Origin: Escherichia coli
GTDB taxonomy: Bacteria; Pseudomonadota; Gammaproteobacteria; Enterobacterales; Enterobacteriaceae
DNA: 64,000 nucleotides
Assembly: GCF_045037415.1 (NCBI RefSeq)
Contig: NZ_CP173438.1
Direction: 5' to 3' (one strand)
In this document: positions 12,001 to 18,000 of the stretch, one piece after another
Layout: each line of letters opens with the position of its first letter
Position numbering within the stretch: position 1 is the stretch's first letter
Made by a program: the position numbers

Positions 12001-15000
12001 CTCTGCGGTCAGCTCTATGAACGTATCCATACCCGCGACATGCGCATGATGGGCGGTCTGTGGAGCAAGATGAAGTGGCTGCCAGCACTGTCGCTGTTCT
12101 TTGCGGTGGCAACGCTTGGGATGCCTGGCACCGGTAACTTCGTCGGCGAATTTATGATTCTGTTCGGTAGCTTCCAGGTTGTCCCGGTAATTACCGTTAT
12201 CTCTACCTTTGGGCTGGTCTTTGCATCTGTTTATTCGCTGGCGATGCTGCATCGCGCTTATTTCGGTAAAGCGAAAAGCCAGATTGCCAGCCAGGAACTG
12301 CCAGGGATGTCGCTGCGTGAGCTGTTTATGATCCTGTTGCTGGTGGTGCTGCTGGTACTGCTGGGCTTCTATCCGCAGCCGATTCTGGATACCTCGCACT
12401 CCGCGATTGGCAATATCCAGCAGTGGTTTGTTAATTCCGTTACTACTACAAGGCCGTAAATCGCCATGACAATAACTCCACAAAACCTGATCGCACTGCT
12501 ACCGTTGCTGATCGTCGGCTTGACGGTGGTGGTTGTGATGCTCTCCATTGCGTGGCGACGCAATCATTTTCTCAACGCTACGCTCTCGGTTATTGGGCTT
12601 AACGCGGCGCTGGTTTCGCTCTGGTTTGTCGGCCAGGCGGGCGCTATGGACGTTACGCCACTGATGCGCGTTGATGGTTTCGCCATGCTTTACACCGGGC
12701 TGGTATTGTTGGCGAGCCTCGCCACCTGTACTTTCGCCTACCCGTGGCTTGAAGGCTATAACGACAACAAGGATGAGTTCTACCTGTTGGTGTTAATTGC
12801 CGCGCTGGGCGGGATCCTGCTGGCGAATGCCAACCATCTGGCGTCTCTGTTCCTCGGTATCGAACTGATCTCTTTGCCGCTGTTTGGCCTGGTCGGTTAC
12901 GCTTTCCGCCAGAAACGTTCGCTGGAAGCCAGTATCAAATACACCATCCTTTCTGCCGCAGCGTCTTCTTTCCTGCTGTTCGGTATGGCGCTGGTGTATG
13001 CGCAGTCTGGCGACCTGTCGTTTGTCGCACTGGGTAAAAACCTCGGCGACGGTATGCTCAACGAGCCGCTGTTGCTGGCAGGTTTCGGCCTGATGATTGT
13101 TGGCCTCGGCTTCAAACTCTCTCTGGTGCCGTTCCACCTGTGGACGCCAGACGTATACCAGGGCGCGCCTGCGCCGGTTTCCACTTTCCTGGCGACGGCG
13201 AGCAAAATCGCTATCTTCGGCGTGGTGATGCGTTTGTTCCTTTACGCACCGGTGGGTGACAGTGAAGCGATTCGCGTAGTGCTGGCGATTATCGCCTTTG
13301 CCTCCATCATCTTCGGTAACCTGATGGCGCTGAGCCAGACCAATATCAAACGTCTGCTCGGTTACTCATCTATCTCTCACCTCGGCTATCTGCTGGTGGC
13401 GCTGATTGCGCTGCAAACCGGCGAGATGTCGATGGAAGCGGTAGGGGTTTACCTGGCAGGTTATCTGTTCAGCAGCCTCGGCGCGTTCGGCGTGGTCAGC
13501 CTGATGTCCAGCCCGTATCGTGGCCCGGATGCTGATTCCCTGTTCTCTTACCGCGGTCTGTTCTGGCATCGTCCGATCCTCGCGGCAGTGATGACGGTGA
13601 TGATGCTTTCACTGGCTGGTATCCCAATGACGCTGGGCTTTATCGGTAAGTTCTACGTGCTGGCGGTCGGTGTCCAGGCACACTTGTGGTGGCTGGTGGG
13701 TGCCGTAGTTGTCGGTTCGGCAATCGGCCTCTACTACTACCTGCGTGTGGCGGTGAGCTTATACCTTCACGCTCCGGAACAACCGGGTCGCGATGCACCA
13801 TCAAACTGGCAGTACAGCGCAGGCGGTATCGTGGTGCTGATCTCTGCACTGTTGGTACTGGTGCTGGGTGTATGGCCACAACCGCTGATTAGCATTGTGC
13901 GGTTAGCAATGCCGCTGATGTAAGCAGTCAGTTTGTAAGTCAGAAAGCCGCCGACATGTTCGGCGGTTTTTTTGGGTGCCCTGACACCATCACCCAACAA
14001 TAACCGTCAGCGCATGATTCCCTTGTCGCAGCATACGTCGATACGCGCTAATCAGCTTTTCCATATCAAGCATGATCGAAGCAAAGAGTTGCCCCTCTAA
14101 CTCTTCTGAAAAGGTTACTCCCGGATAAATCTCCATTTCATTGAGTCGCTTAATGGAAAACTGTTTACGCAGCTCACTTCGATCCAGTGATTCCAGTCGG
14201 TCGATTGTCGCGGCTAACTCCTGATTCCAGGTCAATCCCAGGAAGCCATCTATGCCATCTTCTAGGCTGTGTTCACCAAGCACTGCGCGACTTAGCGGGT
14301 CATTCTTCGCGGGGTCAAATGCAGATGTACCCGTCAGGCCAAAGTGTAAAAAATCCCAGCGTTTATCAATATCCAGTCGGCGTAATCCTGAAAGCGTGTC
14401 ATGTATATTATCCATCAAAGGTTTTTTAGTAGACTCAAGCAGTTGGTTAATCTTTTCTGAGTCAATTTCTGCAAAATAGCCAATCATTCCCATTTATTTT
14501 TCCTCCGTTGAATTTCATGTTTCGCATCTTAAAACAGACGAAAGAAAATAAAATGCGCATGTTGCTTTTTCTGGATCCGCCTCGAGAAATTTTTATTATT
14601 TACTGTTGTATAACAAGGTTGTAACTCCATCCACTACCTGAGCCATTTTCTGATAATTTAATCTGTCTGCGATATCACCGGGAAAGTGGTATTGTTTATT
14701 ACGATAAAAAGCGGTGTCAGTAATCATTACGGCGGGAATATCGTATTGCCAATAATTAAGGTGATCAGAGAAATCAATACCGGGAATAAAACCTGGGGCA
14801 TTCATAGAATAAACAGATAAATCCCGGGATGACAACAATGCCGCTTTTACCTGACGAACGGCGTTGATATCCTGCATTCTGCCGACCACGGCAATAAAGT
14901 CTCCCCGATCGGGATAAAGCCAGGACATGGCCGGGGATGGGTAATCCTGGCTACCAGGCGTAGAGTCGTAATAACCAATCATCTCCAGCGCTATCATTAA

Positions 15001-18000
15001 TTTCACTGGACGCTCAAGCGAAGCTGCATGTACCGCGCTCCCCATTTCATCGCTACGAAAGAAGGGCGGTTCTTCCGACGCATAGGCGACCAGCTGCACG
15101 CCTGTTTTCGGTGCTTGCTGCTGTAACAAACGTGCCAGTTCGAGTAATCCTGCCACACCGCTGGCGTTATCATCCGCGCCCGGCGTATAGGTCAATTGAT
15201 CGTTTTCGTAACTACTGACAGAGTCATAGTGCGCACCAATAATAATCAGCGGTCCATCGGCAGGACCATAATTAGCAACAATGTTTTTGTAGGGGCCACC
15301 CGTAATGGGGATATCCTGCGCGGTAACTCTGGCACCGCTACTGATAAAGACCTCTTTTATATACTCTGCGGATCTATTCAGATTATCAATATTGTCGGCG
15401 CTACGTGGATGCACAGTTTGTGTAAGATAACGAACTGTTTTTTCTAATTGCTCAGGACTAGCGTGTCGGGGCGTTGGTGGTAATGCATTCACCCAGGGTT
15501 GGTAAAAAATAATCAGAGGGAGTGAAAATAGAAATAATATAATAAAAGCAAAATTTATTTTTTTCATATGCAAATTATTAATGGGTTGCGTTGTTGAATC
15601 ATTATTTGTTATGGGTTTCGATATTGTATTTTATTAAGATTAGCAGGATTATACAAAGAGTGTATTTTATGTCGGGGCCCTGAGTTTATTTAAAAGGATT
15701 TTATATGCGAAATAAAAATATAATCATGTTGCTTATAAGTAGTTTGATTTTGTCAGGATGTGGGCCGGAACCTGAGGATAAGAAAAGTCAGCAACAACAA
15801 TCTACTACACCCACTGACCAGCAAGTGCTTGCCGCGCAACAAGCGGCAACAAAAGTGGCTGAGCAAAGCGCCGCCAAAGCCGCTGCAGACGCGAAAGCCT
15901 TAGCCCAGCAAGAAGTGCAACAATATTCAGACAAACAGGCTTTGCTGGGGCGATTGCAGGCGGCTCCAAAATATCAACATGCAGCCAGAGAAAAAGCAGC
16001 CTCCCAAATCGCAAATCCAGCAACCGCTCGCTACCAGCAGTTCGATGATAATCCGGTTAAGCAGGTAGCGCAAAACCCGTTGGCGACGTTTAGCCTTGAC
16101 GTCGATACCGGCAGTTATGCGAATGTGCGGCGTTTCCTTAATCAAGGGCTGTTACCTCCGCCAGACGCTGTGCGGGTGGAGGAGATAGTCAATTATTTCC
16201 CGTCTGACTGGGATATCAAAGACAAACAATCTATTCCGGCCTCTAAGCCAATACCTTTCGCTATGCGCTACGAATTGGCACCTGCACCCTGGAATGAACA
16301 GCGAACATTGCTGAAAGTTGATATCCTGGCGAAAGATCGCAAAAGTGAAGAGTTACCCGCTTCTAATCTGGTCTTTCTTATCGACACGTCTGGTTCAATG
16401 ATTTCTGATGAACGTTTGCCACTTATCCAGTCTTCGTTGAAATTATTGGTCAAAGAACTTCGTGAGCAGGATAACATTGCCATCGTGACCTACGCTGGCG
16501 ACTCTCGTATTGCGTTGCCTTCTATCTCCGGTAGTCACAAGGCGGAAATTAATGCTGCAATTGATTCGCTGGATGCAGAAGGCAGTACCAATGGCGGTGC
16601 CGGGCTGGAGATGGCTTATCAGCAGGCAGCGAAGGGGTTTATTAAAGGTGGTATCAATCGCATTTTATTGGCCACTGACGGTGACTTTAACGTTGGCATT
16701 GACGATCCAAAATCGATTGAATCAATGGTCAAAAAACAGCGTGAGTCCGGTGTTACTCTGTCGACGCTTGGCGTGGGGGATAGCAATTATAACGAGGCAA
16801 TGATGGTGAGAATTGCCGATGTTGGTAACGGCAACTATAGCTACATTGATACCCTCTCAGAGGCGCAGAAAGTGTTGAACAGTGAAATGCGGCAGACGTT
16901 GATTACCGTAGCAAAAGATGTCAAAGCGCAAATTGAGTTTAATCCCGCGTGGGTAACGGAATACCGTCAGATAGGTTATGAAAAGCGCCAACTTAAGGCA
17001 GAGGATTTTAATAACGACAACGTTGATGCGGGTGATATTGGCGCAGGTAAACATATAACATTGTTATTTGAATTAACGCTGAAAGGGCAAAAAGCATCAA
17101 TTGATAAGTTACGCTATGCCCCGGATAACAAATCAGCGAAATCGGACAAAACAAAAGAACTTGCCTGGTTAAAGATTCGTTGGAAATCCCCACAGGGAAA
17201 AGAAAGTCAGTTAGTTGAATTCCCGTTGGCATCTGCAATAAAGGCACCTTCAGAAGATATGCGCTTTCGCGCAGCAGTGGCTGCATATGGGCAAAAGTTA
17301 CGCGGTTCTGAATACCTGAACAATACCTCCTGGCAGCAGATCAAACAGTGGGCTCAGAAGGCAAAAGGGGAAGATCCACAGGGTTACAGAGCGGAATTTA
17401 TTCGCCTGATTGGACTGGCGAAAGATCTGGACAATTCACAAAACTAAAAATGATAATTCTGTTTGCCTGATATCGACATCAAACGTATCCGGCAAACAGA
17501 TGAAAAAATGTCAAATAAATGTGTTGGTATCGTTAAATTAATCTGCTAACTAACCACCGCTTTCGACTTAAATGCTAAACACCGCGAAATCATTCGCCAG
17601 TTCAGTCGCCGGGAAAATTGACCGACATTCACGTAACAGGTGCTGACAACCTTTGTCATCATAGCGTGAGCTGACGTGGGTAATGATTAGCTTACCGACT
17701 CCAGCCTCACGGGCTAGTGCCGCCGCCTGGCGTGTAGAACTATGGCCGCGACTGTTGGCTTTGGCCTCCATCGCCATATCCAGAGTCGCTTCGTGAACCA
17801 TTACGTCGACGCCTTTAGCAAGCTCCAGCGCGGCATCGCAGGGGCCGGTATCGCCGAAAATAGCGAGCGCTTTACCCGGCACTGGAGCGGCTAAGTAATC
17901 TGCGCCATTAATCTGCCTTCCATCATCCAGCATGATTGTTTTGCCCGCTTTTAATTCCTGAAACAGCGGGCCAGGCGGCACGCCAGCAGCTTTTAATGCC

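Follow-up and report, generated by a model that had tools for sequence, protein, structure and literature searches.

What kind of genetic unit is the AT-rich block of three genes, yfbM, yfbL and yfbK, that lies between nuoN and rbn in Escherichia coli? We considered this question in a 64-kb stretch of E. coli DNA (contig NZ_CP173438.1), the whole of which is here called the window. Pfam matches agree with the identities given to the three products in a preliminary description: a DUF1877 protein (YfbM), a Peptidase_M28 protein (YfbL) and a protein combining vWF_A, VWA and YfbK_C domains (YfbK). That description had taken the block for an old horizontally acquired islet, and had seen in the divergent yfbL-yfbK pair a secreted peptidase and a lipoprotein bearing a vWA (von Willebrand factor A) domain acting together at the cell surface. 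The reading that we consider probable is a different one, in which the block is made up of an ancestral and dispensable yfbL-yfbK pair, a separately added yfbM and an AT-richness common to the region, with YfbK providing a binding head and YfbL an aminopeptidase that do not form an obligate system. The genes themselves are already catalogued, the structure of YfbM is solved and the polymorphism of the adjoining elaD gene is published; the corrected picture, in which the supposed islet resolves into an ancestral pair, a genus-specific yfbM and two flanking variable sites, is modest as a discovery.

Ancestry and base composition of the block

The divergent yfbL-yfbK pair is found between nuoN and rbn in two enterobacterial lineages other than Escherichia, namely Superficieibacter electus (locus L008; 63% identity for YfbL, 65% for YfbK and 94% for NuoN) and an enterobacterial metagenome scaffold (locus L025; 67.5%, 65% and 94%, respectively). 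In both, the genes run in the order nuoN, yfbL, yfbK, rbn, elaA, elaB, with room for other genes on either side of the pair, and the composition of the pair is typical of the host (GC 0.53 and GC at third codon positions, GC3, 0.56-0.585, with locus means of 0.538 and 0.545), in contrast to the 0.44-0.47 of the truly foreign Septu genes beside the pair in the scaffold. In Salmonella SL1344, elaC, a receptor/regulator gene, yfbK and nuoN bear consecutive locus tags (PMC8065163, Table 1). The marks of mobility that would identify a genomic island are missing around the block in the window, where we found no tRNA gene, integrase open reading frame (ORF), flanking repeat or credible Rfam match; nor does the pair combine an atypical composition with absence from the same locus in related genera. 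Because the pair is syntenic at host-typical GC, because yfbK adjoins nuoN in Salmonella and because no mobility marks are seen, we place the origin of the pair before the split of Escherichia, Superficieibacter and the scaffold's lineage, and the origin of its AT-richness within Escherichia. The two genes are best seen as a vertically inherited, non-essential enterobacterial pair.

The AT-richness remarked on earlier is nevertheless real. With a GC content of 45.05% (window mean 52.2%), the 3.46-kb block is the lowest-GC stretch of its length in the window, the minimum for that length elsewhere being 45.9%. The GC3 values of yfbM (0.440), yfbL (0.423) and yfbK (0.456) are the second to fourth smallest of 52 genes, effective codon numbers are 53-59, and the spacers of the block have 29-35% GC. 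In both base composition and codon use the block thus deviates in the way expected of a genomic island, and it lies below its neighbors, most strongly below the nuo genes. This last contrast is inflated, because the nuo genes are themselves unusually GC3-rich (0.62-0.72). To the right of yfbK, rbn (0.477), elaA (0.487) and elaB (0.461), all of them core genes, are low in GC3 as well, and the block differs little from them. We infer that the AT-richness is a regional trait of weakly codon-biased, low-constraint genes in Escherichia rather than a relic of import.

The history of yfbM is separate from that of the pair. Its product is matched along its length by DUF1877 (PF08974; 121.9 bits over residues 1-163) and by the chain of the YfbM crystal structure, PDB 1RYL (E 1.4e-107), which assigns it to the DUF1877/YfbM family, and it has neither a signal peptide nor another export signal. 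A single-sequence AlphaFold model of the protein was too poor to be of use (predicted local distance difference test score, pLDDT, 46.3; all-helical). Among the 5,426 complete E. coli genomes on which all population counts are based, yfbM is more highly conserved than the other two genes, being covered over at least 80% of its length in 5,355, and its ratio of nonsynonymous to synonymous substitutions (dN/dS) relative to K-12 is 0.036. Its 85 close homologues come essentially all from Escherichia/Shigella, and the nuoN-rbn intervals of S. electus and the metagenome scaffold are without it, so that, of the three genes, only yfbM is missing from this position in related genera. A fair reading is that it was acquired in the Escherichia lineage at the hot spot beside nuoN. 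In Shigella flexneri, an internally shortened YfbM of 107 residues (P0427-P0461) is widespread, in up to 1,000 contigs.

Predicted properties of YfbK and YfbL

Our literature search returned no defined function for yfbM, yfbL or yfbK, only screen-level phenotypes, in agreement with the statement of the preliminary description that their function had not been defined. For yfbK, these comprise a rifampin-persister screen, a low-conjugation mutant and recovery in a detergent-resistant protein fraction. For yfbL, a 2025 preprint reports that Keio deletions of yfbL and yfbO confer complementable resistance specific to phage N4 (bioRxiv 10.1101/2025.09.29.679331). An LldR binding peak inside yfbK was set aside, being listed as a non-target by its source paper. 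A PADLOC search with the three proteins matched no known defense protein, and a PHROG search gave no match for YfbM or YfbL, while the vWA region of YfbK matched a single PHROG of unknown function.

YfbK contains, in order, PF12450 (vWF_A; 112.9 bits), PF00092 (VWA; 78.6 bits) and PF12034 (YfbK_C; 229.3 bits), all above their gathering scores, and the same three domains recur in 61 of 61 diverse homologues. The protein is divided into a stalk (residues 20-105, with a helix at 38-85), the vWF_A N-domain (106-210), the VWA domain with its metal ion-dependent adhesion site (MIDAS; 211-398) and YfbK_C (399-574). Both the MIDAS motif and the Gln/Ala-rich linker noticed earlier hold up in the alignment and in residue counts: the MIDAS is intact, with D227, S229, S231, T295 and D325 invariant in the 61 homologues, and Gln and Ala make up 44% of residues 20-105 against 16% of the rest. 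The lipobox L-S-G-C19 is kept in E. albertii, Superficieibacter and the scaffold, and the protein is predicted to be lipidated at Cys19 and, with Gly at +2, sorted to the outer membrane. Compared with its K-12 counterpart (580 vs 575 residues), it has a different linker and different last ~9-10 residues; the differences cluster in the linker (19 of 86 positions) and in this tail, and are scarce in the N-domain (1 of 105) and the VWA domain (5 of 188). The family is very large: at 50% identity, its sequences below E 1e-30 fall into 7,233 clusters, with a conserved core (residues about 103-578) and freely varying N-termini (CarboxypepD_reg, SoxY, zf-HC2, SLH and STN). The fusion of the head to so many different N-termini therefore points to a general binding module.

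In an AlphaFold model based on 61 sequences (pLDDT 87.8; predicted template modeling score 0.81), the helix at 38-85 is flanked by disorder and followed by a compact head. The structure search proposed for YfbK was carried out, and the head of the model matches the folds of ITIH1 (PDB 6FPY), archaeal ArnB (PDB 8S05) and 4FX5. As in ITIH1 and ArnB, a vWA domain with a MIDAS is packed on a beta-sandwich. However, the sequence identity to these two proteins is 13-15%, the whole-chain template modeling scores are about 0.35, Pfam detects no VIT domain, and YfbK is predicted to be a lipoprotein, of bacterial type, with a Gln/Ala stalk; the likeness is one of architecture and not of family. The closest solved vWA sequences are those of Bacteroides BatA/BatB (PDB 4JDU and 3IBS; E 1.6e-7 and 1.4e-5; 22-27% identity). 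Membership in that group was rejected because only the vWA domain matches; unlike YfbK, the Bat proteins are membrane-spanning, belong to a bat operon, of which there is none in the window, and have neither the vWF_A N-domain nor YfbK_C. In the literature YfbK also figures as a structural counterpart of putative vWA force transducers (PMC12204202), but a TolA/TonB-like assignment of this kind was likewise rejected, as the protein lacks both a membrane helix and the SHLS motif and its gene has no tolQR-like neighbors.

Through its head, YfbK is also related to the ECF289 anti-sigma factors of extracytoplasmic function (ECF) sigma factors, in which DUF3520 is reported to be joined with a von Willebrand domain (Casas-Pastor et al. 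2021, PMC7826278). Anti-sigma factors of this type have the same three-domain extracytoplasmic head, 43-50% identical to that of YfbK. In six of the eight distant YfbK-like loci with upstream sequence, the immediate upstream neighbor is an ECF sigma gene of the same orientation, and in a seventh locus the sigma gene is adjacent but divergent; the YfbK-like proteins that follow ECF sigma genes begin with a cytoplasmic segment and a transmembrane helix. YfbK itself lacks the cytoplasmic anti-sigma segment, the membrane helix and an adjacent sigma gene, opens with a lipoprotein signal peptide and neighbors yfbL and rbn, and hence falls outside the ECF289 anti-sigma factors. Because only the head is present, on a stalk predicted to be lipid-anchored, YfbK is expected to work like a sensor head and not as an anti-sigma factor; and because this head forms, in other phyla, the periplasmic portion of ECF sigma/anti-sigma pairs, it is best viewed as a binding or sensing module rather than an enzyme. 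YfbK would be exported and lipidated at Cys19, presenting an ITIH/ArnB-like head raised on about 85 stalk residues, and the head would bind a carboxylate of its ligand through a metal bound at the MIDAS. Viewed in this way, as a MIDAS module of ITIH/ArnB type that recurs in ECF anti-sigma factors, the head provides a starting point for ligand finding.

YfbL is a predicted peptidase of the M28 family, scoring 89.1 bits against Peptidase_M28 (cut-off 21.3). Alignment to PDB 1AMP identifies a catalytic set of H113, D132/D133, E165-E166, E195 (Asp in 1AMP) and H269, and these metal-binding and catalytic residues are kept in seven orthologues. The N-terminus has a hydrophobic signal or anchor at residues 4-22, with possible cleavage after VNA28. 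The two-zinc M28 aminopeptidases, such as the Aeromonas/Vibrio proteolytica aminopeptidase (AAP; 1AMP) and the Bacillus enzyme 2EK8, have the same M28 fold signature, and their metal-binding and catalytic positions align with those of YfbL; the signature is also common to the M28-type glutaminyl cyclases (PDB 4FUU and 6QRO). However, only the core aligns (E about 1e-10), the fourth ligand differs from that of AAP (Glu195 vs Asp), and unlike the solved M28 enzymes YfbL has its own N-terminal anchor and is without a pro-domain or PA domain. It also scores far below the NCBIfam cut-off for LapA (49.9 vs 600 bits). These features suggest that YfbL would act as a membrane-tethered or periplasmic two-zinc aminopeptidase, trimming the N-termini of envelope peptides or proteins.

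Loss in E. coli and alternative readings

In E. coli the pair is dispensable. While nuoN is found in 5,423 of the 5,426 genomes, at 95% identity or more in all of them, yfbL is full length in 3,292 (61%) and yfbK, which gives any match at all in 2,541, is full length in 46%, so that the presence of this ancestral pair splits the species roughly in half. The lesions in yfbL and yfbK take the form of at least four deletion structures and, in two strains, of IS1 insertions inside yfbK. The O157 type combines an internal yfbL deletion that removes all catalytic residues (window 14980-15305) with the loss of 15835-17420; strain 16843 keeps yfbL but has lost yfbK and most of elaD; strain 21AH126 has only a 135-bp stub of yfbK; and a cryptic-clade genome retains a remnant of 51 codons. 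Other species of the genus are similarly affected, with an in-frame stop at yfbL codon 216 beside an intact yfbK in the type strain of E. albertii, NBRC 107761 (L007 618-1589), and a mostly deleted yfbL beside a retained yfbK in E. whittamii. The two genes are thus decaying in many E. coli lineages through several independent lesions, and are under purifying selection where they are kept (dN/dS relative to K-12 of 0.25 for yfbL and 0.19 for yfbK).

A further feature of this region is that the 5' end of yfbL and the divergent spacer (window 15306-15834) exist in at least three deeply diverged E. coli alleles, with pairwise identities of 81%, 88% and 92% to the O157-type remnant, and with far less divergence in the flanks.

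Adjacency of the two genes was found in three enterobacterial lineages only, Escherichia, Superficieibacter and that of the metagenome scaffold. No M28 gene neighbors yfbK-like genes in nine of nine distant loci, and no vWA gene neighbors yfbL-like genes in two of two (Hydrogenophaga and Usitatibacteraceae), so that the adjacency that would mark a co-functional pair is missing in these 11 loci. Nor are the two genes always present or absent jointly: in about 770 E. coli genomes yfbL persists where yfbK does not, and Salmonella, with no annotated gene between yfbK and nuoN (PMC8065163), apparently has yfbK without yfbL at the locus. Of the proposed peptidase-vWA surface system there thus remains the adjacency in three lineages; the conservation of the pair across genera, which the preliminary description had named as a check, is not seen among the more distant loci. 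The two genes may be co-regulated from the spacer between them, without forming an obligate system.

How do the alternatives fare against these data? That the three genes entered together as one old islet, with an AT-richness inherited from the donor genome, is quite improbable. Such an origin would account for the low GC of the block and of its spacers, its codon use, the indel sites relative to K-12 on both sides and the restriction of yfbM to Escherichia; it is contradicted by the synteny of yfbL-yfbK at host-typical GC in two other lineages and at the same place, for yfbK, in Salmonella, by the lack of a tRNA gene, integrase or flanking repeat, by the extension of low GC3 over the core genes to the right, and by the borders themselves, the right one being an ancestral state and the left one a deletion or variable-cargo site with no island end. 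For yfbL-yfbK the islet reading is already largely refuted, and the block should not count as a genomic island. What survives of the original claim concerns yfbM only, a gene restricted to Escherichia/Shigella that is lacking from the outgroup loci and lies at a variable site. It is rather unlikely, too, that YfbL and YfbK form one envelope system, in which the peptidase would process a ligand, or YfbK itself, before the vWA head binds. The divergent arrangement around a short AT-rich spacer in three lineages, the presence of yfbL in nearly every yfbK-carrying E. coli, the predicted extracytoplasmic location of both products and the loss of both genes, by two deletions, at the O157-type locus are what such a system would lead one to expect; the distant loci, the Salmonella gene order, the survival of yfbK beside a destroyed yfbL in E. 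whittamii and of yfbL without yfbK in genomes such as strain 16843, and the recovery of yfbL and yfbO but not yfbK in the phage N4 screen (bioRxiv 10.1101/2025.09.29.679331) all speak against it.

Two further readings would tie the genes to signaling or to phages. A detached ECF289-type sensor head still signaling to a regulator encoded at another E. coli locus would explain the identity of the YfbK head to proteins encoded directly downstream of ECF sigma genes, with their anti-sigma-like N-terminus and membrane helix, and would be in keeping with the published ECF289 architecture; yet the lipoprotein signal peptide that stands in place of the cytoplasmic domain and helix, the lack of a sigma factor gene next to yfbK in the window and the fusion of the head to many other N-termini make it most unlikely. 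Alternatively, yfbL and possibly yfbK could encode envelope factors that give N4-like phages access, with phage predation, rather than neutral decay, driving their repeated independent inactivation in E. coli, E. albertii and E. whittamii and YfbK representing a free-standing ECF289 head. This idea, which we hold to be hardly probable, draws on one yfbL phenotype, from a preprint on K-12, and on the pattern of loss found here. Our preferred reading, of an ancestral and dispensable pair that is not an obligate system, has to be set against several considerations of its own. The outgroup sample is small, consisting of two non-Escherichia loci and one Salmonella table; the direct scan did not take in Citrobacter, Klebsiella, Enterobacter or Salmonella, and the scan of the genome collection for YfbK, with very specific peptide patterns, gave hits in nine distant genomes and otherwise in Escherichia species and Superficieibacter alone. 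The pair may also have been acquired before the split of these genera, in which case base composition would no longer show it. Relaxed selection is a conjectural cause of the low GC, the outer-membrane sorting, lipidation and metal binding of YfbK are read from its sequence alone, and the signal cleavage and metal binding of YfbL are likewise predictions. Finally, at least 80% of the block is present in 2,520 genomes and the pair is kept together in nearly all yfbK-positive E. coli, a joint retention compatible with a functional link.

The flanking variable sites and neighboring features

The window is 100% identical to E. coli Esc19 (NZ_OZ369329.1, 1362630-1426629, reverse strand), whose RefSeq annotation has the same genes as the ORFs found here. 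The yfbK allele is 100% identical to that of O25b:H4-ST131 strains, and we therefore regard the window as a B2-type chromosome. From nuoN, the gene order is yfbM, yfbL, yfbK, rbn, elaA, elaB and menF (Table 1). The K-12 counterparts of the three block genes, which we take to be b2272 (yfbM), b2271 (yfbL) and b2270 (yfbK), have the same order and orientation, with amino-acid identities of 98.8%, 92.9% and 92.0%, respectively; the window differs in having neither the yfbP-yfbO-yfbN genes of K-12 on the left nor elaD on the right.

Table 1. Features of the nuoN-rbn interval, in window coordinates
Feature	Position	Strand	Remarks
nuoN	12466-13923	+	
Hairpin and T-run between convergent nuoN and yfbM	13947-13973		GC-rich; read from sequence
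Left variable site	13975-13988		empty in window
yfbM	13990-14493	-	cytoplasmic DUF1877 protein, 167 aa
yfbL	14596-15567	-	predicted M28 metallopeptidase, 323 aa; alternative TTG start at 15573 gives 2-codon extension
yfbL/yfbK divergent spacer	15568-15704		137 bp, 29% GC
yfbK	15705-17447	+	predicted lipoprotein, 580 aa
Right variable site	17421-17564		elaD-less junction
Inverted repeat between convergent yfbK and rbn	17458-17500		15 bp, 93% complementary, 13-nt loop
rbn	17568-18485	-	

Breakpoints from blastn confirm that, as had been suspected, both borders of the block are indel sites relative to K-12. On the left, the 2,558 bp with yfbP-yfbO-yfbN that K-12 has in addition fall between 13974 and 13989 of the window, directly after a hairpin, GCCGCCGA-catgt-TCGGCGGT followed by TTTTTT, that is likely to be a bidirectional terminator; it was recognized by eye and is not among the structures listed by the pattern scan. 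The same site holds IS200 in strain 21AH126, orf328-yfbN-yfbP-orf177 in Superficieibacter, yfbN in Escherichia sp. MOD1 and, between nuoN and yfbL of the metagenome scaffold, a complete Septu pair (PtuA, E 4e-168; PtuB, E 1.5e-68; L025 7978-9900) with a GC content of 0.44-0.47. The occurrence of the Septu pair, yfbP-yfbO-yfbN and IS200 at the same place therefore marks the site after the nuoN terminator as a cargo hot spot. The flanking sites, and especially this one with its Septu pair in one lineage, are worth noting in surveys of pangenomes and defense islands. The YfbN protein of K-12 (L001 3013-3729) shows weak UBA-like matches (UBA_4, E 2e-4, below the cut-off), and its gene shares the variable locus with the deubiquitinase gene elaD (L001 7515-8726); both are absent from the window.

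On the right, 1,493 bp of K-12 sequence, comprising elaD and a different 3' end of yfbK, replace window 17421-17564. The elaD-less junction of the window aligns collinearly with that of E. whittamii at 91.6%, of Escherichia sp. MOD1 at 96% and of a cryptic-clade genome (L020) at 86.6%. Because of this collinearity with three other Escherichia lineages, the junction is best taken as the ancestral Escherichia state and elaD as an insertion, and the right border therefore marks no island edge. Published data in which no B2 or G strain carries elaD (PMC12575377) fit the elaD-less window. The inverted repeat at this junction is probably a terminator common to yfbK and rbn. In Superficieibacter, though not in Escherichia, a cheV-like gene encoding a CheW domain and a receiver domain lies between yfbK and rbn (L008 11496-12497); its Salmonella SL1344 counterpart, SL2283, carries a receptor/regulator protein annotation (PMC8065163). 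As for transcription signals, the spacer between yfbL and yfbK contains one sigma-70-like match facing yfbL (15675-15648; 10 of 12 positions), but the pattern scan for promoters and terminators gave counts no higher than in shuffled sequence, and for this reason no promoter is claimed.

Several other features of the window deserve mention. The elaA allele (18550-19011) is only 82.7% identical to those of K-12 and O157 in DNA and 86.9% in protein, with a synonymous divergence (dS) of 0.94; this equals the divergence of other Escherichia species, while the neighboring elaB is 99-100% identical. The core gene elaA is thus dimorphic, with deeply diverged alleles. Between yfaU and glpC, an rpnE gene (annotated as an ISNCY-family transposase) adjoins a truncated hypothetical ORF (42052-43321). 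Further AT-rich troughs occur at 34166-35817 (ais/nudI), where ais has the lowest GC3 of the window (0.393), and at 49214-50492 (glpQ), and a 681-bp spacer of 34% GC lies upstream of the autotransporter gene yfaL (54956-55636).

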